A stretch of DNA of 25,808 nucleotides from a virus (taxonomy: Duplodnaviria; Caudoviricetes): the IMG/VR virus record IMGVR_UViG_3300048861_000153, positions 1-25,808 of that record; one strand, written 5' to 3'. Within the stretch, counting starts at the first letter, position 1. Every line of letters starts with the position of its first letter. This document shows positions 1,643-13,340 of the stretch, piece after piece. A program made the translations under genes and the position numbers. The notes beneath the pieces are model-generated. The model was not told the DNA's origin. It worked only from the letters and a program-made list of their open reading frames with translations, and searched no databases.

Positions 1643-1691
1643 TGGAGCCGATGAGCGGATTTGAACCGCTGACCTACTGATTACGAATCAG
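1643..1691 (-). other. att core: 3' half of tRNA-Thr(CGT) including anticodon arm, T arm and CCA; not a complete tRNA
   Basis: Minus strand CTGA-TTCGTAA-TCAG-TAGGTC-AGCGG-TTCAAAT-CCGCT-CATCGGC-T-CCA; no D arm or 5' acceptor strand (GCCGATG) upstream. Confidence 0.92.
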
Positions 1692-1811
1692 ACAGTTCTC
1701 ATAACTGCTTTTGCTCTAAAACACTAATCTTTTCATTTACTTAGATGAGTTGCCCGCACGGATTATCACAGCTAGAATGATGCTCGTTTTGCTCGCTTTT
1801 TTGCATGATGT

Positions 1812-3460: not shown

Positions 3461-3491
3461 AAACTTATAACGAGCCCCCTTTCGGGGGCTC
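3461..3491 (-). terminator. Intrinsic terminator closing the late operon
   Basis: Minus strand GAGCCCCC-GAAA-GGGGGCTC then GTTATAAGTTT, 35 bp after the 941-aa gene stop. Confidence 0.75.
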
Positions 3492-3526: not shown

Positions 3527-6352
3527 CTAGTTGATCGATTGCGCCTTGTCATCAAAGACAAAGTGCTGCGCTAAACACTTACCAGCGGCTAGCGCGTTCA
3601 CACCGGACGTATTGAAGTTGTTCCAAACCGGCTCTGTCGGGACTACGGATACAGTCCCGGTTCCAGAACATCCCGCACCAGCACGAACCTGAGTAATTGC
3701 AGTTATGACACCGGCAGTACTGATCGTCGGCAGATATGCGGGGTAGACCGTACATGTCAATCCAGAGACATAGAAGTTGGGTAGATAGTTGCTGTCATAC
3801 CCACTTCCCCCATTGGTGAGGGTTTCGACTCCGGCAGAAGTTACTGTTGCTGTGGCCCCCGAACCTACCGCTATCGCTGGAACAGTCCTACCTCCTGTTG
3901 TGTCTTGGCAAACGGTTAGATCAAGAGTGTCCCCTTGATTACCGTTGATGACCTTCATAGTTGTGACATTTCCGGTCAACGTCAGCGTCTGAGAGTGGCC
4001 CAAGGACATATCAATGTCCACATTGGCTCCGAACGCTGCTGTGTAGTTGGTTCCTCTACCAATTTCACCCAACTGGTTCATCATGTTCATGAACCGACCA
4101 GAGAGTGCTGCTCCACCTAACGCGCTTTCGTGAAGAGCTTCATCTTGATAGTAGGGACTGGAATCACCGAACCCTGGCTGACCAACCGTCCCGTTGATCT
4201 GGGGGTAGGCGGGGTTGGCCATACGCAGGTCATTAGCCCAGTCTACAAGACCGTCCAACTGACCGCCTGTGGTCATAGATGTATTGAAGGATAGTCTCTG
4301 AACATTGACCGCGCTTGTTGCGGCAGCGGATGGGGTGAGTGTAATTCCGATTGTCTTATAGCCGGCCGAGTATAGCGTCTTAGTCGCCTGCTTGAAATTG
4401 GTGTACAACGCTGTCGCTGTGCCTCCACCTTGAAGATCGTTGATCCCCATATACAGACCAGAGAAATGGGGTGGAGCAGGGTATCCCACCACGGTGTATT
4501 GATTGACCAGATTGGCCGACTGTGCGAGTACACCGTTGTTCACATAGTTGGAAAGTAGTTGCCCAGACGTTCCTGCATTCAGAACGACCACTCCTGGCAT
4601 ATTGAGCTTCGTTGGAAGCAAGTAGCAATATGTGTTCGGAAGAAGGTTGTTTCCCGACGTCTTTGAGTCCCCAACGCACTCAACGAAAGGGCTGCCTGAC
4701 TTATACCAACTTGGTACCGTAGCTACTGTCTGACTAGTCGCAGTAGCGATTCGCTCACTGAGAACCAGTGCATTATGCTGGATGACATCAGCAGGAAGCT
4801 CCGTGCCTATCGCAGCCACAAACTTATAGATCGTGGCGTCTGTTCCGTGAAAGAACCCACCGAGACCTAAACCAGCCGTGGCGGGAGACCAGGTTGGCAT
4901 AATGTTCTTCATGGACAATTTAGCAGTGCCAGCCCAAATCTGGTCTGCGCCGGCACCGTTGCTAACTACCGTGTAGCATTCAGTTTTACCTATATCTACA
5001 GGTTGAATTGCGGTGGATGTATTTTGAAAGCCTCCAGCTCCATTCACTTGCAGGGAACCGTAGAGGTCGGACATAATCCCTGGAATACCAGCACCACCGA
5101 CCTGCCCCAATAGAGAGATTGTTCCCGTCGAATTGGACGCGATGTTCGCACAGAAGGTGTAAGTAGAGTGTTGTGCCCAGAAACTTTGTGGGACGGCTAC
5201 ATACTGATTGTTTGTCGCGTTGAAGATGAGACCATTTGTCCCGTTCCATGCCGGCGCACCGCCTGCTCCTCCACCATTGACCGTTAGTGGCACACTGCCA
5301 ACAGCATCAGCCAGCGTTGTTGCTCCTGTGCCGTCATTCATCTCATAGTCGTTGGTCACACCAATGAGAGTTGCGGCTCCAGCATATGTAACCACGCCTG
5401 TGGTCTGATTGACCCAGACGTTACCAGTGCTAATCCATTGCTGAATTGAACCGTCAGGCTGCGCCTGGTAGTAATTTGCTCCAGCGGACCCAGTACGTCC
5501 TTTAGGCACCGCCGTACCGGTTGAGATCGCTCCTGCGGCTGCATCAACGTACTGCTTGGTCGCTGCTTGCAAATTCGAAGACGGGTCAGCTGCGAGAGTG
5601 AGCGCTCCAGTCATCACGCCTCCGGCTTTTGGCAAGGCTGCATTTGCCGTCGACTGAGCAGCAGCGGCCACGCTTGCCGCAGATGTGACCGAAGCTACGG
5701 TCGGATAGTCCGTACCTGGCGCGGCAGCAAGCGCGCCGCCCGCGTTGTCCCCCTTTAAAAGATTGGTTGTGCTGGGAAGAGTCGCACCGCCGCTCGATCC
5801 CGATTGCGGAACATAGATCCCGGCAACACAGTTATAGGTTTGCGAAGGCGAACCCTGCTTATAAAAGATCGAGGTATTCGAGCAATGCGCCGGCACTGTC
5901 ACACCGCTCAGAAGCCCCGTCGGTGCGACGATGGCGCTCTGCGTCGGGACATAGCTGTCTAGCGCCCAGCTCGCCCCGCAGACGCCAGCGACCTTGGTCA
6001 GCGTGAAGGCGCTCTTCGTCGCCGTGTTGTAGACCTGGATCTGGTAGGAGAGGACTGTGTTCGGCGTCGTCGGAGCTGCAGTGCATTCGTCCGGAACCTG
6101 GAATCCGCCGGCGATCGCTCCATTCGTAATCGCGGCTGTAAAACCTTGCGCGTCGAAGAGTGATCCTCCGGCAGTAATCGGAATCGGACTTCCCAGAGCA
6201 TTTGTCGGGATGAAGGTTACGGTTCCCGCAGCGACCGCAGTTCCCTTCATCTTGATTGAGGTGGCTGTGATCGTCGTCATCTGTGCTTGCGCGCAGACAG
6301 AGAGGCCAACGGCGCACACGAGCGCCGCGGCTGCCTTCAGCAGTCGGTTCAT
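3527..6352 (-). CDS. Tail-fibre/spike-like multidomain protein with signal peptide, LamG-like domain and SGNH hydrolase domain
   Basis: N-terminus MNRLLKAAAALVCAVGLSVCAQA|Q; fibre motif LPKAGGVMTGALTLAADP...AATKQYVD; LamG-like YEMNDGTG...W..NGLIF; SGNH blocks GDSKT, NAGTSG, GINDL, DEALH; C-terminal QDTTGGRT domain; SD AGGAG. Confidence 0.85.
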   Translation of the reverse strand: MNRLLKAAAALVCAVGLSVCAQAQMTTITATSIKMKGTAVAAGTVTFIPTNALGSPIPITAGGSLFDAQGFTAAITNGAIAGGFQVPDECTAAPTTPNTVLSYQIQVYNTATKSAFTLTKVAGVCGASWALDSYVPTQSAIVAPTGLLSGVTVPAHCSNTSIFYKQGSPSQTYNCVAGIYVPQSGSSGGATLPSTTNLLKGDNAGGALAAAPGTDYPTVASVTSAASVAAAAQSTANAALPKAGGVMTGALTLAADPSSNLQAATKQYVDAAAGAISTGTAVPKGRTGSAGANYYQAQPDGSIQQWISTGNVWVNQTTGVVTYAGAATLIGVTNDYEMNDGTGATTLADAVGSVPLTVNGGGAGGAPAWNGTNGLIFNATNNQYVAVPQSFWAQHSTYTFCANIASNSTGTISLLGQVGGAGIPGIMSDLYGSLQVNGAGGFQNTSTAIQPVDIGKTECYTVVSNGAGADQIWAGTAKLSMKNIMPTWSPATAGLGLGGFFHGTDATIYKFVAAIGTELPADVIQHNALVLSERIATATSQTVATVPSWYKSGSPFVECVGDSKTSGNNLLPNTYCYLLPTKLNMPGVVVLNAGTSGQLLSNYVNNGVLAQSANLVNQYTVVGYPAPPHFSGLYMGINDLQGGGTATALYTNFKQATKTLYSAGYKTIGITLTPSAAATSAVNVQRLSFNTSMTTGGQLDGLVDWANDLRMANPAYPQINGTVGQPGFGDSSPYYQDEALHESALGGAALSGRFMNMMNQLGEIGRGTNYTAAFGANVDIDMSLGHSQTLTLTGNVTTMKVINGNQGDTLDLTVCQDTTGGRTVPAIAVGSGATATVTSAGVETLTNGGSGYDSNYLPNFYVSGLTCTVYPAYLPTISTAGVITAITQVRAGAGCSGTGTVSVVPTEPVWNNFNTSGVNALAAGKCLAQHFVFDDKAQSIN

Positions 6353-6383
6353 TGTTTACTCCTGTAAGGGGTTTTGAAAGAGC

Positions 6384-6920
6384 TTAGAGCTTGATATGGG
6401 TTGTTTCGGTGGAGTGACGATACTGAACCTGGTGGAGAAGAACTGCCTCGGCTCGCGCGCGAATGCGATCGTTCAGTAGCTCATTGAAGGCCTCGGGATC
6501 GGTATCGATCAGAGACGTCTCCTCATGGGTGAAGTTCGCGACCACGTGCACATCAGGAACCCGCTTATAGTGCCCCATAAGCTCTTTCGGCGATAAGGTG
6601 GACTTCCAGTCCTCGAAGGTCTTGCGATCGATCTTGCCGGCACGATAGAGATCCGGATAGTGGATTGTGGGATCCGTACAAAGCTTCGCATGCACCTCAG
6701 CTAGGCGCTCTTCCCTCTTCAGAGTCGTCGAGCAGCCACAGGAGGGACAGCGCACTTTGCCATCCTCATCGACCATACCGGCTCTTTGGGCCACCTCAGG
6801 ACGCACTGCTGTCGGACACCTCTCCTCGTCGCAACAGTGCAACTCCGGATGCGTATGGCATTTGAGCACAGCGGAATGAAAGCAATAATGCTCATGCGAT
6901 TCGAGAATCTGGTTATCCAT
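6384..6920 (-). CDS. Cys/His-rich hypothetical protein, probable metal binder
   Basis: HEHYCFH...CHTHPELHCC...C...CPSCGC...H..C in the first 82 aa; overlaps the upstream gene by 8 bp. Confidence 0.75.
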   Translation of the reverse strand: MDNQILESHEHYCFHSAVLKCHTHPELHCCDEERCPTAVRPEVAQRAGMVDEDGKVRCPSCGCSTTLKREERLAEVHAKLCTDPTIHYPDLYRAGKIDRKTFEDWKSTLSPKELMGHYKRVPDVHVVANFTHEETSLIDTDPEAFNELLNDRIRARAEAVLLHQVQYRHSTETTHIKL

Positions 6921-7194
6921 TCTGAACCGCCTTCTTCACAACTGCATTTCCGGAATAAGTGAAGTTTTCACTACCCTCATCCTTCAGAGCATTGAATGTC
7001 TCCTCGTCGATACCAACGGGATCCAGAAGCTTCGATCCATAGGGAGAGAGAGCTTCTCCCTGGCCATCCTTAAGAGGATTTCCATTCGAATCGTTGAAGA
7101 CCACGCGATTGACCAACGGAACAATTGTTGCCTCCGGATCTCCACAGACGTGAACGATATTGCCCGCCTCATCGTGTTCGATAAAATAGATCAT
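6913..7194 (-). CDS. Small acidic tail-region protein, possible fibre assembly chaperone
   Basis: Start reassigned to ATG 7194 (MIYFIEHDEAGNIVHVC), 4 bp after the previous stop; position and the FTYSGNAVVKK ending resemble small fibre-associated proteins. Confidence 0.6.
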   Translation of the reverse strand: MIYFIEHDEAGNIVHVCGDPEATIVPLVNRVVFNDSNGNPLKDGQGEALSPYGSKLLDPVGIDEETFNALKDEGSENFTYSGNAVVKKAVQNG

Positions 7195-7198
7195 TTTT

Positions 7199-7660
7199 CT
7201 ACATCCACCTATAAGAGATCTCGTCTGGAATTCCGGTTGGACATTGCCCATCATCGCTTGGAGCAGTGGTGTTGAAGACGCGGAATTGCCCGGTTAGCGG
7301 TCGAGCTCTGTGGGAAGCGGAATTGTAAATGTTTGTAGTCACGCAGTGATTCAAAGGAACGAGGATATGTTGAGTTCGAATACTGGGCCAAAAGGCATCG
7401 ACTTGCACCGATGGAACCTCACCAGGCAACGTTGCGACGGCAGCCGAACCTCCGGGGAGAACAGTGACGGTTCCAGAAGTCGGAGACATGGAGGATCCAG
7501 GAGCCCTCAAATTCGTAATATTTCCCTGAGAATCGACAACACCGATCCCATTTATCGAAAGTTGAGTAACCGGAACTCCGCTCCCAAGACAAATCAGACC
7601 GGAGTCATCGATCGTCAATAGAACGACGCCGGCACTTACATCTGTGATCTTCAGACCCAT
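7199..7660 (-). CDS. Small beta-rich minor tail protein, paralog 3 of 3
   Basis: Shares D...VLLTIDDSGL..LGS...LSINGIGVV and SPTSGTV...VPSVQVD with 8026-8382. Confidence 0.75.
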   Translation of the reverse strand: MGLKITDVSAGVVLLTIDDSGLICLGSGVPVTQLSINGIGVVDSQGNITNLRAPGSSMSPTSGTVTVLPGGSAAVATLPGEVPSVQVDAFWPSIRTQHILVPLNHCVTTNIYNSASHRARPLTGQFRVFNTTAPSDDGQCPTGIPDEISYRWM

Positions 7661-7664
7661 GGAT

Positions 7665-8021
7665 TCAAATAATTGCGTATGCGCAGGCTTTAGTTACGTT
7701 CGCCGTACTTGTTAGCAACGCCGCCGTGAAGTTGGTTGAATCAAAGCGCACAAGGCAAGCTCCAGACACCGTTCCCATTCCGGCGCAAGGCCCGACGTTG
7801 ACGCTCACAGAAGATAGAGAGGTGATCGTCACACTTCCAACCACTCGCGCAACCCCTCCGGACGGAAGCGTCTTAGGAGCGAGCTGGCTTCCCTGCAGCA
7901 AATTCCTTCCCTGAATCGACAACGTATCGGCGGCGCTTCCCGAACCGATCTCGAATCCTCCGCCGTTCGAAGCGGACATGACCTTGCTTCCGGAGCCCGC
8001 ATCCTTGAACTCGACAGCCAT
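7665..8021 (-). CDS. Small beta-rich minor tail protein, paralog 2 of 3 (most diverged)
   Basis: FKD....VM...GG..IGSG...LSIQG and GSVTI, terminal Y-x-hydrophobic; same 118-aa length as paralog 1. Confidence 0.7.
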   Translation of the reverse strand: MAVEFKDAGSGSKVMSASNGGGFEIGSGSAADTLSIQGRNLLQGSQLAPKTLPSGGVARVVGSVTITSLSSVSVNVGPCAGMGTVSGACLVRFDSTNFTAALLTSTANVTKACAYAII

Positions 8022-8025
8022 AGCC

Positions 8026-8382
8026 TCACCAGATCTTATAGTTGTAAGTAACGCTCGAGGTCGTACTCGTATTCGTGAAAACTGTTTCCGTGGTGCTCAC
8101 GCTCGTCGGATCGGAATCCGCATTGACGGTTGGAATCTGCGGCAGCGAGTAAGTTACCGATCCGCTCGCATTCACCGGAATAACGATCGTTCCCGTTAAC
8201 GGACTGGGAGCTCCCGGCTTCGCGATCCCATTGGCCATGTATGCGCCACTGGTGATCACTCCCACGCCCGCAAAGGATAAGGCCTGATCAGGATTCGCAC
8301 TGCCCATAAGCCCAATCAGGCCGGCATTATCGATGTACAACACGAATACATTGGCGGTCTCATCCTTCAGCACGAAGGGCAC
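8026..8382 (-). CDS. Small beta-rich minor tail protein, paralog 1 of 3
   Basis: LKD....VLYIDNAGL..MGS...LSFAGVGVI, SPLTGTI, IPTVNAD, terminal YKIW; start overlaps the tail-tip stop. Confidence 0.75.
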   Translation of the reverse strand: MPFVLKDETANVFVLYIDNAGLIGLMGSANPDQALSFAGVGVITSGAYMANGIAKPGAPSPLTGTIVIPVNASGSVTYSLPQIPTVNADSDPTSVSTTETVFTNTSTTSSVTYNYKIW

Positions 8383-11300
8383 TAGATAGCCTCGATTGAA
8401 TAAGACTTGCTTCCGGAGTTGATGAACAACCGGTATCCGGTCGGAACCACCGTCGCAATTACTCCGGACGGAACGCCACTAACGAAGCTTGTATCGTTCG
8501 CAGTGTTCTGCCCTGTCACATCAGCTCCCCACTGACCGGCAGCAGCATAGTCCTGGGCAACGATGTGAGAATATCCAACGACCGCGGTTCCGAGCTGATA
8601 GACGTCTAGACCCGCGTAGTGAATACCGCCTGGACACGTCCAGTCATAGCTGTACGTCGTCACTCCATTGTTGATATTTCCGCCAGCAAGAAAATCGACA
8701 TATCCGACTACATTCGGGTCAAGGACAGGTTGATATGCTGAGCCAAATGCGAGGCGATGGTAAATCACCCTTGTTCCATCAGCGATGACCTGACCCGTAA
8801 ACGAAAATCGGTATTTATTTCCGGGCTGAACTGCAAAGGTCGGAGAAAATCCATATTGACCTCCCGTAATCTTGAGACCCGGGATACCTGGATCGAATAC
8901 CCCAATGGACAGCCAACCAGCAAGACTTCCAAGGAGAAAATCACCATTCGGCACGAGATTGCCACTCAGGCCCGAGTACATATTCGGCTGCAAGCCTTGC
9001 GCATTGTCTCCATTCGGAAACGTGACTGAGCCGGCGTCGCGATAGGTCGTGCTCAAGTCTATGAGACGAGGCGTTGACGCTCCAGGCGGGGTAAATAGAC
9101 CTTGAATTTCGCCAGGCCCGCTTCCATTTTGAAACTCGATCACGATCTGATAAGAACCTCCTGCGACGAGATTTATCGTCCCGGACGCTGAATAGGTGAG
9201 ATCGGGATCGCCGGAGTGTCCGTTCGACAAGAAATCGAATAACACCTGATTGTCCACTGTCATGCGTGCGCCATCATCACTGTTGACGCCGAAAGTGTAG
9301 GTTCCAGTCTGTTGAGCGATGAATGTGCACGTAAATCGCCCGTAGATCCATTGAGCGGTACCTCCGTCGGGAGGAGGTGGCAACTTTGTTCCTCGGGCGA
9401 ATTGATAACTATTACCCGGGTAATCCAGGATGAAATCGACGATACTTCCTGTCGTTTTGAAGAGAGTGTCCTGCGCAAGCTCGCCACCGCCCGCCGGCGG
9501 CGTTCCACCGTTTGGAAGCCTCCACCATTTTCCCAGCCAACCTGTGATCGCCGGTAGTTGGGACCCCAACGTTCCCAGAAATGTATCGAGCGATGGGACC
9601 GGAAAGTTATCTTGCTCCACCCAATCCGAGGTCGCTCCATTTGCACGCAACGTAGCAATCCGAACGTCGTAGTTCTGGCCAGCAATAATGGTCGAAATCA
9701 AACCGACATTCAAACTGATGTCCGCCGTAGGAGCTGAATACCAAGTCCCCGCGCCTGACGGCCGGAACTGAATCAAGATCCCCGTCGCCGCATTGTCCAG
9801 AGGCGTATCCCAGTTCACCTGAATGACTGGGGTGACGCTGCCATCCTGCCCCACAATAGCCGTCTGTGGCCCGCTGCTGAGCTGCAGATTGGTCGGAGGG
9901 TTTGGAGTCCAGGGAGTCTGCGTCGGAGCCGCCGGCGAAGAGTAAACCGTCAACTCCTCCAGCGTCGACCAGGAATAGACATCCGGTCCAGTCTCCTGCA
10001 GCGTCATGGAATAGCGGATCGCCGGCGCATCCTTGCCCGATCCATCGCTGTCAGCGCGCAGAGTGGTCCCGGCGATCTCCATCACCTGGTTGCTCCAACC
10101 CAGCTGGGCGAAGGTGAACTGAAGCGTATCGCAACTCTGAACCTTGTATGCACCAAGCTTCAGTTCGATCGTCCCGCCGCCCTGGTACTTTCTCTGGCGC
10201 ATCAGGTTGATCTTCATCACACGCTGGCACTGAGTGAGCGAAAGAACCGTCGGCAGGTTCATCTGCAGCGGCCGCTCGCGTCCCAGGTCCTGCGTCATCC
10301 ATTCATCGTTCGGATAACCATGCAGCTGATCCTGCGCATAGTAGGGAACCGACGAATTCGTGAACTTCAGATCGAACGTGTTCTCAACCTGCTGCGTATT
10401 TTGATAGAAATTGCCAGCCGTCGACCAGGGCCATTCCGGAGAGATATGCGTTGCCGTCACCCGATTGGGCAACTCACGGATCGAACGATACGGCTTCCAG
10501 TCAAAAGCTGCCGTGATGGCAGATAAATCCAGCGAGGATGAAGGTCCCACATAAGCCCCTGGATAGATGAAGTACTCACCCCCGGTATAAGACAGCCGCC
10601 CCGCCATTCCGGTCATCATGGTCTGTAGAACGTCGGCAATCGGCGTCGACGTGTCATAGATCCAATCGCAGCAATAACGGGATTCCGTGCTGCCATTGAG
10701 CGCAGCCACGGCAACCTGCTCATCACATATGTTCGCGGCGGCAACGAGCTGCTCCTGGTTGACGTTCGCATCTCCCAGGCCGAATACCGTATCGGTGATC
10801 ACATCAGCAGCAATCAGCGCTGCGTTATTGGTAAAGCCTCGCACGCCCGTGCGAGGATCCAGAATGTCACTCTTGCCATTGAGCAAAATCTTGACTTCCG
10901 GCCGCGAAGGAAACTGACTGGTGGACTGAGTCAGCTTTAGATAAATGTAGGTGCACCCCATCAACGATGGCGCATCGCCGGTAACCGGGTTATAGGCCCA
11001 CGAAGGATCATTCCCCGTCAATGAGCCCATCACATCTCCGCTGGGCTGATCACCGTAGCGCGCTTCGACGTAAACTTTCCCGCCGAAGTTATACTTGGTG
11101 ACACCATCGGGACCGATGTGATCATTGTTGTCCGCATCGCCTCCGAATCCGACTCCGTTTCGAACTGCCCAGCCGAAACCAGATCCCTTGAAAAAGACCT
11201 TGCGGCCATCCAGAAAGATCGCCTGGATCGAGTGGGACACATGACCATCCAGCAAGATCACCTGATTCCACTGATGGCCCGTGAAGGATTCATAAACCAG

Positions 11301-11555
11301 CACACCACCAACCATCTGCGTCCCATAGACGATCTGGCGAGGAGCCGCCGGCTGCCGCGTTGCGACCTGCATGGAGCGGTTGCTACTCAGTGTCTCCGCG
11401 ATCGCCCCGGCTTCATTTGCAATGCCGGATAGAACAAGGCCAGCAAGAGCCTTATCGAACCATGGAGAGGCGATCAGAGCCGGATCGAAAAACGCGGCCA
11501 CGCCAAGGCCTACGGCTCCAGCCAGCTCCACAGCTCCTAATATCGCTTTGCTCAT
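8382..11555 (-). CDS. Tail tip / central fibre (gpJ-like hub) with FN3-like, PA14 and CBM-like C-terminal domains
   Basis: PRQIVYG..MVGG, DPRTG...NNAAL..AD, AANICDE, YCCD, PNRVTA hub motifs; PNPPTNL..VNWD..YDVRI (FN3); GTYTFGVNSDDGARM..INLVAG..YQIVIEF (PA14); NLVPNGDF..GW (CBM-like). Confidence 0.9.
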   Translation of the reverse strand: MSKAILGAVELAGAVGLGVAAFFDPALIASPWFDKALAGLVLSGIANEAGAIAETLSSNRSMQVATRQPAAPRQIVYGTQMVGGVLVYESFTGHQWNQVILLDGHVSHSIQAIFLDGRKVFFKGSGFGWAVRNGVGFGGDADNNDHIGPDGVTKYNFGGKVYVEARYGDQPSGDVMGSLTGNDPSWAYNPVTGDAPSLMGCTYIYLKLTQSTSQFPSRPEVKILLNGKSDILDPRTGVRGFTNNAALIAADVITDTVFGLGDANVNQEQLVAAANICDEQVAVAALNGSTESRYCCDWIYDTSTPIADVLQTMMTGMAGRLSYTGGEYFIYPGAYVGPSSSLDLSAITAAFDWKPYRSIRELPNRVTATHISPEWPWSTAGNFYQNTQQVENTFDLKFTNSSVPYYAQDQLHGYPNDEWMTQDLGRERPLQMNLPTVLSLTQCQRVMKINLMRQRKYQGGGTIELKLGAYKVQSCDTLQFTFAQLGWSNQVMEIAGTTLRADSDGSGKDAPAIRYSMTLQETGPDVYSWSTLEELTVYSSPAAPTQTPWTPNPPTNLQLSSGPQTAIVGQDGSVTPVIQVNWDTPLDNAATGILIQFRPSGAGTWYSAPTADISLNVGLISTIIAGQNYDVRIATLRANGATSDWVEQDNFPVPSLDTFLGTLGSQLPAITGWLGKWWRLPNGGTPPAGGGELAQDTLFKTTGSIVDFILDYPGNSYQFARGTKLPPPPDGGTAQWIYGRFTCTFIAQQTGTYTFGVNSDDGARMTVDNQVLFDFLSNGHSGDPDLTYSASGTINLVAGGSYQIVIEFQNGSGPGEIQGLFTPPGASTPRLIDLSTTYRDAGSVTFPNGDNAQGLQPNMYSGLSGNLVPNGDFLLGSLAGWLSIGVFDPGIPGLKITGGQYGFSPTFAVQPGNKYRFSFTGQVIADGTRVIYHRLAFGSAYQPVLDPNVVGYVDFLAGGNINNGVTTYSYDWTCPGGIHYAGLDVYQLGTAVVGYSHIVAQDYAAAGQWGADVTGQNTANDTSFVSGVPSGVIATVVPTGYRLFINSGSKSYSIEAI

Positions 11556-11581
11556 CGTCCTCTAGACCACTTCAGAAAGGT

Positions 11582-12145
11582 TTACTTCGCATCCACACTT
11601 GCCGGCAGCAGCAAAACTCTTTTAGGAGCTCCGACCCCTGCCGCATCATCACGCTCAACTCTGCGATGCTTATGCCATCGCGGAGGCGTCCATTCGTGCT
11701 TCTCCCCCAGCGCCCAGGCCCGCGTCACATTCAAGATCGAGAATCGGACCAGACCATCCTCGCCCGGCGAAAGAACGTGACGGCCGTTCATCCCGACGAT
11801 GGCAGCTATCTCGTCTCCGTCACCGTTCTTCACCAACACCAGATCCCCGCGCTTCGCCTGCAGAGGAACAGAGCGCTCGGCCATCCCATACTTATTCGCG
11901 CAATAGGTCGCCGCATCGCCCAGGGTATTTCCGCCTGCGATCTTCTGGATGGTCCGCAGAGCTCCGGTCTCCGTGCTGTATTGCCCACGAAACTCCTGCG
12001 CAATATCAATGCCGGTCATCACCTCAATCGCGTCGGCCGCAAAAGTAGCACAATCGTTTGTGCCCCAGGCAAACGGAACTGCCTCACGCTGCTGCAGGAA
12101 GTCGTTCAGATGAACTTCGAGGTATTGCTCACGCTTCCTGATCAT
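11582..12145 (-). CDS. Tail assembly protein, NlpC/P60-like (gpK-like)
   Basis: FAWGTNDCATFAADAIEVMTG and KRGDLVL motifs; ATGA overlap with the upstream stop gives a start at 12145. Confidence 0.85.
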   Translation of the reverse strand: MIRKREQYLEVHLNDFLQQREAVPFAWGTNDCATFAADAIEVMTGIDIAQEFRGQYSTETGALRTIQKIAGGNTLGDAATYCANKYGMAERSVPLQAKRGDLVLVKNGDGDEIAAIVGMNGRHVLSPGEDGLVRFSILNVTRAWALGEKHEWTPPRWHKHRRVERDDAAGVGAPKRVLLLPASVDAK

Positions 12146-12693
12146 TGCCATTTACCTACAAAATCGTTCAGTTTCTCGACGAAATCGAATCCCGAATCAT
12201 GAGGGAACCGCGCGCGCTGATCCGCCGACGTATAGCGACGGTTACTCGCACGCTGGAAGTCCACCATGCGGCTCTCCAGATTCAGCGTGATCGTCATCGT
12301 GTCTTCGCCGACATGGATATTCGGCTCGTCGATGATCCCTCGAAATACCTGGTAAGGCGTGCCAATCACGATTCCGTTGCCATCCATCAGGCCTAGCCAC
12401 ATAAGCGCCTGCAAGCCTGGCTGAATGTCATTCATCGATTCGCCCAGCAACACGGGATCGATTCCCGAAAGCGTGACGCTTGTGCCATAAGCAGCGACAT
12501 CTGTACCTTCCGTGACTGCTCCGACGCTGGCCAGAGATCCGACACCTACAAACGTCTGGGAGTCGATCGTTAGTTCACCTGTCCCAGTCCAGACCCGCTG
12601 AATCGATGTCTTGAACTGCAACGTGGCCATAAAGAACGGGCGAATTGTTCCGCTACCCAGGGCTGCGGCGAGATTGGAATCTATATTGCGCAT
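12142..12693 (-). CDS. Minor tail / hub protein (gpL-position)
   Basis: RVWTGTG...FVGVG, FRGIID, RRYTSADQ..FPHDSGFDFV motifs; start reassigned to ATG 12693 (TGATG overlap). Confidence 0.85.
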   Translation of the reverse strand: MRNIDSNLAAALGSGTIRPFFMATLQFKTSIQRVWTGTGELTIDSQTFVGVGSLASVGAVTEGTDVAAYGTSVTLSGIDPVLLGESMNDIQPGLQALMWLGLMDGNGIVIGTPYQVFRGIIDEPNIHVGEDTMTITLNLESRMVDFQRASNRRYTSADQRARFPHDSGFDFVEKLNDFVGKWQ

Positions 12694-13340
12694 CAGCGAT
12701 ACTCGGTGATCTGAAAGCTCACGCTCGTCAGCTTCGTAAAATCGGCTGACCACGAGTTGTTATTGCTGGCCAGACGGAAGAGTCCCTTCGGTTGCTGCGT
12801 GACCAGCAGCTGCCCTGGAGGAGGAGCCTCGCGAAGCGATGGCCAGATGGCGATCGACGCCTTGCCATTCGCGTCCGAATTGACCGCATCGAGCACACGG
12901 TGCAACCGAAATCCCACTTGGATGTAATCGCCAGGCAGCAAGAGATTCGCCCGCGACGCAGCCCACCCGGATGTCGGAAGCAGATAAGCCGCGGCCGAGA
13001 TCACAGCAGAAGGATCCACTGCGGGCACACCCTGAACATTGCCGCGCGGAGTCTTCTTCAGCGGATCTCCGATTAGGAATGCATTCCTCATGCCCCGGCA
13101 CTGCATAAGCGCAGCCAACCACATATCCGCCTGAGCCTGCGCCAGAGATGGCAACGTTACGGTGCCAGCCCACGAATCCGCCCCCGGCCACTCCTGCGTC
13201 TGCCCCCCGCCGGTAAAGATTGACCTTACAATCGCTACCGTATTCGAGTGCGTAAACTCGACCGATCTTGCACCAGGCGAAGTCGGAAGAATGACGACGT
13301 CGACCGTCTGTCCGTTTAGAACAATGGAAGTTATCGGCAT
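12693..13340 (-). CDS. Distal tail protein
   Basis: Directly after tape measure; SIFTG..Q..W...W, CRG..N.F..GDP, LLPGDYIQV, IWPSLR motifs. Confidence 0.85.
   Translation of the reverse strand: MPITSIVLNGQTVDVVILPTSPGARSVEFTHSNTVAIVRSIFTGGGQTQEWPGADSWAGTVTLPSLAQAQADMWLAALMQCRGMRNAFLIGDPLKKTPRGNVQGVPAVDPSAVISAAAYLLPTSGWAASRANLLLPGDYIQVGFRLHRVLDAVNSDANGKASIAIWPSLREAPPPGQLLVTQQPKGLFRLASNNNSWSADFTKLTSVSFQITEYR

Follow-up and report, generated by a model that had tools for sequence, protein, structure and literature searches.

Does a tailed phage build part of its particle outside the cytoplasm of its host? The question is raised by a gene at positions 3527-6352 (minus strand) of IMG/VR virus record IMGVR_UViG_3300048861_000153, a single, partial record of 25.8 kb that is called the window here. 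Its 941-amino-acid product is laid out as a leader, an anchor-like module, a stalk, a LamG domain, an SGNH domain and, at the C-terminus, a beta domain, thereby joining an apparent export signal to the parts of a tail fibre. To our knowledge, tailed virions are taken as assembled wholly in the cytoplasm. Comparison of the protein with its relatives suggests, with a probability of roughly 55%, that this is a mosaic fibre-type gene whose product would be an exported, disulfide-folded accessory side fibre, docking on virions at or after lysis and binding and de-acylating surface polysaccharide.

Judged from its sequence, translation of the gene would begin at the leader, at Met1. A Shine-Dalgarno-like site, AGGAG (6359-6363, minus strand), lies 6 nt before Met1, with purine-rich sites in the same place in all seven related loci compared. 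Met25 had been raised as a possible true start in an earlier note on this DNA; no ribosome-binding-type site was found ahead of it, and the position is not conserved, being Met in 20/47 and 22/115 relatives. The predicted Sec/SPI leader spans amino acids 1-23 (6284-6352, minus strand; alternatively cut as amino acids 1-21) and has no lipobox. This "textbook signal peptide" of the earlier note passed a crude leader rule, not SignalP, built on a positive n-region, a hydrophobic h-region and a small-x-small cleavage site; among the 25 other window genes one passed, that of the tail hub, probably as a false positive. The rule was passed by 47 of 48 relatives that share the N-terminal module (the single miss is a capsid-like fusion) and by 115 of 129 further relatives (most of those that failed appear truncated, and no fewer than two seem genuinely to be without a leader), both shares being biased upward because the search profile includes the leader; conservation of the leader among homologs, which the earlier note proposed to check, was thus borne out. 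Among the five relatives that also share the head of the protein, three passed; of the other two, one begins with a longer hydrophobic stretch and the second appears truncated. The plan of charged, hydrophobic and cleavage segments is kept while length (17-31 amino acids) and sequence vary. No lipobox was found among the 115 leader-bearing relatives, on which ground a lipoprotein reading was rejected, and no membrane helix was found in the protein itself.

The leader contains Cys13 and Cys20, and the mature chain has 12 cysteines, at 90, 125, 157, 175, 401, 459, 559, 576, 815, 867, 895 and 926, which the earlier note had read as pairs, roughly one per domain. Counts and covariation agree with six predicted pairs, 90-125, 157-175, 401-459, 559-576, 815-926 and 867-895, of which 401-459 and 867-895 are invariant and were assigned by elimination. 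Of 67 proteins, 64 have an even number of mature cysteines. Among cluster representatives the figure is 39 of 41, whereas cytoplasmic controls gave even counts in 16 of 28 (Fisher p 2e-4, a value that overstates independence because the rows are related); counts are also even in 80 of 85 further proteins of at least 400 amino acids (106/115 at any length) and in eight of nine unrelated leader-bearing proteins of the cultured phages Tunturi 1 and 4. Across 48 aligned rows, Cys90 and Cys125 occur together in 15 and are jointly missing in 33, an alternative pair, 73/84, is present in 23 and missing in 25, and neither pair is ever represented by a single cysteine; Cys815 and Cys926 are jointly absent from one relative (P0006). 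Leaderless relatives have fewer cysteines (0.63 vs 1.61 per 100 amino acids). Because the leader is conserved, Met25 is not, and the cysteines behave as pairs, we infer that export and periplasmic disulfide folding, the core of the earlier proposal, are well supported and likely.

What would attach such a protein to a virion is its N-terminal transthyretin-like beta-sandwich (amino acids 24-137; 5942-6283, minus strand), which carries Cys90/Cys125 and is predicted to be a virion-anchor domain. A model of this N module (pLDDT 87) matched best the N-terminus of the tail fibre of cyanophage A-1(L) (8kec_a; Z 8.9, rmsd 2.6, 92 residues aligned), followed among other phage structures by 9e7m_Ta, probably the lambda Stf collar (Z 6.8), the A-1(L) neck fibre (6.7), the Bxb1 tail tip (6.5) and the XM1 neck (6.1). 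PF08400 gave a weak match, E 0.065, in one of 22 rows. Residues 1-94 of Ur-lambda Stf (StfN) form a 12-mer collar around the tail exterior according to the available text of PMC12617516, and 9e7m_Ta is probably this StfN collar domain because its chain is 94 residues long. An anchor that clamps on the exterior of the tail makes late attachment structurally plausible.

The module belongs to a large family in which the distal parts are exchanged. A search with the whole sequence returned 26 proteins: five have the LamG-SGNH-C-terminal part in common with it, in eight the resemblance is confined to the first ~200 residues, and among the others most share just a short shaft motif. A profile of amino acids 1-190 recovered 48 longer proteins and 1204 clusters at 50% identity, 801 of them at E 1e-10. 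Heads found on the N module include collagen, SGNH, LamG, beta-helix, CBM5/12 and a K1-lyase C-terminal domain; many consist of a collagen shaft ending in a small tip, in which no enzyme could be recognised, and the collagen repeats of these relatives suggest trimers. Within the gene, GC at third codon positions (GC3) falls from 0.68 (amino acids 1-190) to 0.52 (amino acids 311-941), and the conserved N module, the swapped heads and this drop together form a pattern of receptor-binding proteins. The earlier suggestion of an undescribed system survives in part: the combination of leader and fibre was not found in the literature searched, yet the protein is not a one-off, being a member of a family of more than 1000 clusters. 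Other collections gave little. A tblastn search of INPHARED returned a single 50-amino-acid match (E 4e-3), viral contigs scanned with either the full-length protein or the alignment of heads gave nothing, a head profile, run without a positive control, found none in 401 phylum genomes, and phage clusters in the ESM Atlas (0.82-0.87) serve as leads only. Among the sequencing runs searched, none from RNA was listed as carrying the sequence, a result that speaks neither for nor against expression. A prophage of Edaphobacter modestus DSM 18101 (L007) encodes a homolog of the N module.

Several fusions of the module were also observed. In one group (P0060; four members on five contigs) the leader and N module are joined, in frame, to the greater part of a hub protein, which may be a deletion product or a real exported hub. 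P0063 joins an N-terminus that was interpreted as capsid-like to part of the N module, without a leader, and in L063 (8147-10585, minus strand) a gene behind an endolysin has a holin-like hydrophobic N-terminus in frame with the leader and N module.

Of 401 Acidobacteriaceae-family genomes searched, 23 yielded the N module (one, G007, is unpublished and counts in the tally only) and 378 did not. Genome context was read in 20 regions from 18 of the 23 genomes, plus the E. modestus locus. Virion genes lie within ~10 kb in 17 of the 20 regions; two copies lie beside Mu-like transposase genes and one is isolated and broken, and the position of the gene differs among phages. Seven proteins bear the N module without a leader, and with no in-frame leader upstream, five of them matching PHROG tail-fibre families; by its sequence matches, the same module is found, leaderless, in prophage tail fibres of the ordinary kind. 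Forms with and without a leader replace one another in the same slots. One of each is encoded by adjacent genes behind the central fibre gene in L047 (8668-13589), and leader-bearing paralogs, up to three in a row, were seen between the tape measure and Dit genes in L004 (4167-5165), L048, L055 and L056. A careful 28-row tree, from which 43 of 71 rows were dropped, including the long-branch leaderless L047a, shows leader status changing three times (as do all bootstrap trees within the 5-95% range), with at least two changes forced by strong branches. Predicted docking on virions gains support from the leaderless fibres that share the N module and from the modelled fold of the module.

The distal part of the protein would supply binding and enzymatic activity. 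A structure model of the whole protein has a mean pLDDT of 62, and as modelled it has a LamG/ConA-like lectin fold and an SGNH fold. The LamG/SGNH assignment in the earlier note is upheld by Foldseek and by Pfam matches in relatives (Lipase_GDSL_2 in 8/14, Laminin_G_3 in 3/14); the protein itself has no Pfam or PHROG match. The LamG/ConA-like fold (amino acids ~330-535; 4748-5365, minus strand; Cys401/Cys459) resembles, at this model confidence, the lectin domain of a trans-sialidase and viral ConA-like proteins, of the jelly-roll type. The SGNH hydrolase fold (amino acids ~553-765; 4058-4696, minus strand) matched 4rw0 (E 1.7e-7, TM by target 0.77) and also TesA; it has a private pair, Cys559/Cys576, and the residues S563, G594, N638, D737 or E738, and H741. 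One extra residue, E738, lies between Asp737 and His741, the rest of the catalytic set being intact, and S563, G594, N638, D737 and H741 are identical in all six rows of the head alignment. These SGNH blocks had been pointed out before, as had the fibre hallmarks, whose quoted motifs were located at amino acids 240, 263 and 816. Matches in BFVD were to LIT1, KPP21 and crAss001; sequence searches of the PDB yielded none for the protein apart from a single weak SGNH match at E 0.14, and no S74 chaperone was found in it. Between anchor and head lie a small beta domain (amino acids 145-185; 5798-5920, minus strand; Cys157/Cys175) and an Ala-rich helix with a fibre-shaft motif (amino acids 190-280; 5513-5785, minus strand), modelled at low confidence, the motif being common to the leaderless fibre proteins P0021 and P0024. 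The chain ends in a beta domain with an inserted beta domain (amino acids ~770-941; 3530-4045, minus strand), holding Cys815/Cys926 and Cys867/Cys895.

Leader-like starts, judged by eye, also occur in the cultured Tunturi phages. Tunturi 1 has six consecutive such genes in its virion module (gp12-17) and no integrase among its 106 annotated genes, and in Tunturi 4 they were seen in gp113, gp114 and gp111, the last from an upstream TTG. The annotated start of gp111 (L014, 35076-38171) is probably ~119 codons late, the upstream TTG giving a leader. The term "signal peptide" is absent from the available text of the Tunturi phage paper (PMC11924767). A suggestion that gp14 or gp15 of Tunturi 3 carries the N module was not supported (best E 0.98). 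Taken more broadly, we would give even odds to the view that the tailed phages of Acidobacteria assemble a portion of their virions extracytoplasmically, with host-recognition fibres passing through Sec, acquiring disulfides in the periplasm and attaching to finished particles at lysis, and with the anchor having changed more than once between a cytoplasmic and an exported route.

A number of observations weigh against an exported side fibre. The fold of the anchor is a common one: once the best match is set aside, transthyretin-like domains from phages and from other sources score alike, at Z 6-7.6, and comparison of the N module with solved fibres in the PDB gave only chance-level sequence matches. 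Some copies adjoin terminase, portal or early genes, outside the tail block (L049, L062), and a single origin of the leaderless forms was not formally rejected (p-AU 0.064). Even cysteine counts are also found in six of seven leaderless relatives, so parity alone fails to separate the classes, and the leader shares are inflated as noted above. Disulfides in virions can form without export, according to the available text of PMC13576161. The N module is absent from all Tunturi DNA examined, the leader-bearing Tunturi genes not being homologs of it, and of the 20 structural-region genes compared from the first 50 kb of Tunturi 3, none is leader-like. The product could instead be an exported late protein that is fibre-derived and remains outside the virion, a soluble de-acylase or receptor decoy released at lysis that frees progeny from host polysaccharide or blocks competitors. 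This main rival is possible, though distinctly less probable: the leader, the disulfide pattern and the SGNH residues fit it equally well, it requires no new assembly step, it accords with the varying gene position, and it has a precedent in XepA, which the available account (PMC6834076) describes as a late protein of a prophage that is exported and missing from particles. It gives no evident reason, however, why a free enzyme should retain an anchor-like module with its stalk in over 1000 clusters, many of whose heads are the collagen shafts described above, nor does it account readily for the alternation of leaderless and leader-bearing forms in the same slots. If true, it would mean that secreted late proteins derived from fibres make up a large class not described before.

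That the gene acts in the lysogen, as a lysogenic-conversion protein serving as a periplasmic or surface adhesin or exclusion factor in the manner of Lom, Bor or the Bdellovibrio MAT fibres, is unlikely. Bor and Lom are lysogenic-conversion proteins with an envelope anchor (lipobox or membrane helix), whereas none of the 115 relatives has a lipobox and the protein has no membrane helix. The phage is temperate, with an integrase and a tRNA-like att core, and the gene lies in the variable region near att; in the available text of PMC10769870, MATs have a similar plan of signal peptide, ~130-amino-acid beta domain and variable fibre. Against this, the 31-bp gap upstream of the gene holds no promoter-like site in a sigma-70-like scan and the gaps of relatives measure 21-50 bp behind three different upstream genes, Tunturi 1 has leader-bearing fibre-like genes with no annotated integrase, and most host-family genomes searched (378/401) yielded no N module. 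Least probable by far is an ordinary cytoplasmic tail fibre whose leader is unused or whose real start is Met25. The fibre slot, the fibre-like modules, the existence of leaderless relatives and the occurrence of disulfides in non-exported virion proteins (PMC13576161, available text) would suit it; the ribosome-binding site at Met1 only, the poor conservation of Met25 and the maintenance of the leader plan through changing length and sequence speak against it.

For an exported accessory side fibre, the following course may be proposed. The gene would be expressed late through read-through, and the product exported by Sec and cleaved near Ala23. Oxidation, with six predicted disulfides, and oligomerisation would take place in the periplasm, and there, for want of a lipobox, membrane helix or barrel, the fibre would remain waiting. 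At or after lysis the N-terminal sandwich would dock on the tail or neck exterior of finished virions, in a geometry akin to the lambda Stf collar, outside gpV/gpM. The LamG domain could then bind, and the SGNH domain de-O-acylate, the host surface polysaccharide, leading to faster adsorption, while the essential step would fall to the cytoplasmic hub. By exporting the fibre, the phage would be able to borrow sugar-binding domains that depend on disulfides.

The surroundings of the gene are those of a temperate siphovirus from soil. Excisionase and integrase genes lie at 258-1627, and the minus-strand order is terminase, portal, protease, capsid, connectors, tail tube, tape measure, Dit, hub, five small genes and the fibre-like gene, the final co-oriented gene behind the tail module, in a variable region adjoining att. 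Its description in the earlier note as the last late-operon gene, with neither promoter nor terminator visible in the gap before it, holds: the consensus scan, in which promoters were sought as sigma-70-like sites only, listed no minus-strand promoter- or terminator-like site there. A terminator-like G+C-rich hairpin with an 8-bp stem and a weak U tract lies 3' of the stop codon (3472-3491, minus strand) and was not listed by the consensus scan. A tRNA-like stretch directly after the integrase (1646-1708, minus strand; Rfam tRNA, 29.3 bits), in which the 3' half is intact and includes a CGT anticodon, probably represents the att core within a tRNA-Thr gene. The cytoplasmic tail tip is encoded at 8382-13340 (minus strand) by genes for the hub or central fibre, an NlpC-like protein, a tail protein and Dit; the hub (8382-11555) has a PA14 domain, giving the tip its own predicted sugar-binding module. 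Directly upstream of the fibre-like gene are five small leaderless tail-associated genes (6384-8382, minus strand), without a family match in Pfam or PHROG, the first three of which look paralogous and the last of which is Cys/His-rich. They match Tunturi 4 gp17-21 at 35-56% and are common to several prophages, and the block after the hub travels together in the window, L002, L005, L008 and Tunturi 4, with at least part of it also in L003 and L057. Pfam and PHROG scans of 30 open reading frames in this partial record recognised no lysis gene. The host is likely a member of the Acidobacteriaceae, because both genome loci found are Edaphobacter, the named homologs are from Edaphobacter, Tunturiibacter and Granulicella, and Tunturi 4 has matches to the five small genes.

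In summary, a lysis-attached exported fibre, if real, would add an extracytoplasmic step to virion assembly, tie infectivity to the secretion and disulfide machinery of the host, allow co-lysing phages to exchange fibres, and explain the recruitment by phages of disulfide-dependent sugar-binding domains. It is directly testable in cultured Tunturi 1 and 4, with their leader-bearing fibre-like genes, and in the E. modestus DSM 18101 prophage with its homolog of the module. Every domain of the protein is known; what appears new is the joining of a fibre-anchor-like module to a conserved export signal, a combination not found in the literature searched, and no exported virion fibre is described in the titles and abstract openings of the phage tail-fibre and signal-peptide papers searched, which left most subscription papers uncovered.

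Among known systems, XepA of PBSX is likewise a late prophage protein exported past the cytoplasmic membrane; as given in the available text of PMC6834076, it differs in being pentameric, absent from particles, encoded in a lysis cassette and without fibre architecture, and it gave no match in fold searches with the window protein. Bdellovibrio MAT fibres share a signal peptide, a conserved ~130-amino-acid beta-rich domain, a variable fibre and tip, and disulfides, but are cellular surface adhesins in the available text of PMC10769870, whereas the present family sits in phage virion modules (17/20 regions beside virion genes); the N module showed no detectable profile match to one MAT-like protein, P0023 (hhalign probability 2%, one sequence; the label MAT-like is our own). 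SGNH de-acetylating receptor-binding proteins, such as G7C gp63.1 and the fibres of Klebsiella prophages, where SGNH tail fibres are active esterases that bind and de-acylate surface polysaccharide (PMC13123978, available text), are alike in the SGNH domain and catalytic residues, the tail-fibre type of protein and the temperate phage. No signal peptide is mentioned in the available main text of that paper (0 occurrences), while the window protein has a leader, one extra residue between Asp and His, and an esterase activity that is predicted. The side fibres Ur-lambda Stf (PDB 9E7M; PMC12617516, available text), A-1(L) (8KEC/8KEG), Bxb1 chain Ka (9D93) and XM1 (7KJK) are close in plan, with an N-terminal beta-sandwich (Z 6.1-8.9), a stalk, a variable head and a gene in the fibre slot, the likeness of the anchors being one of fold only. 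The fibre slot and a conserved N-terminus with swapped heads are thus shared with Stf-type fibres; leaderless cytoplasmic assembly is not, for the matched domains of those fibres begin at chain residue 1-2, whereas that of the window protein follows a conserved leader and carries paired cysteines.

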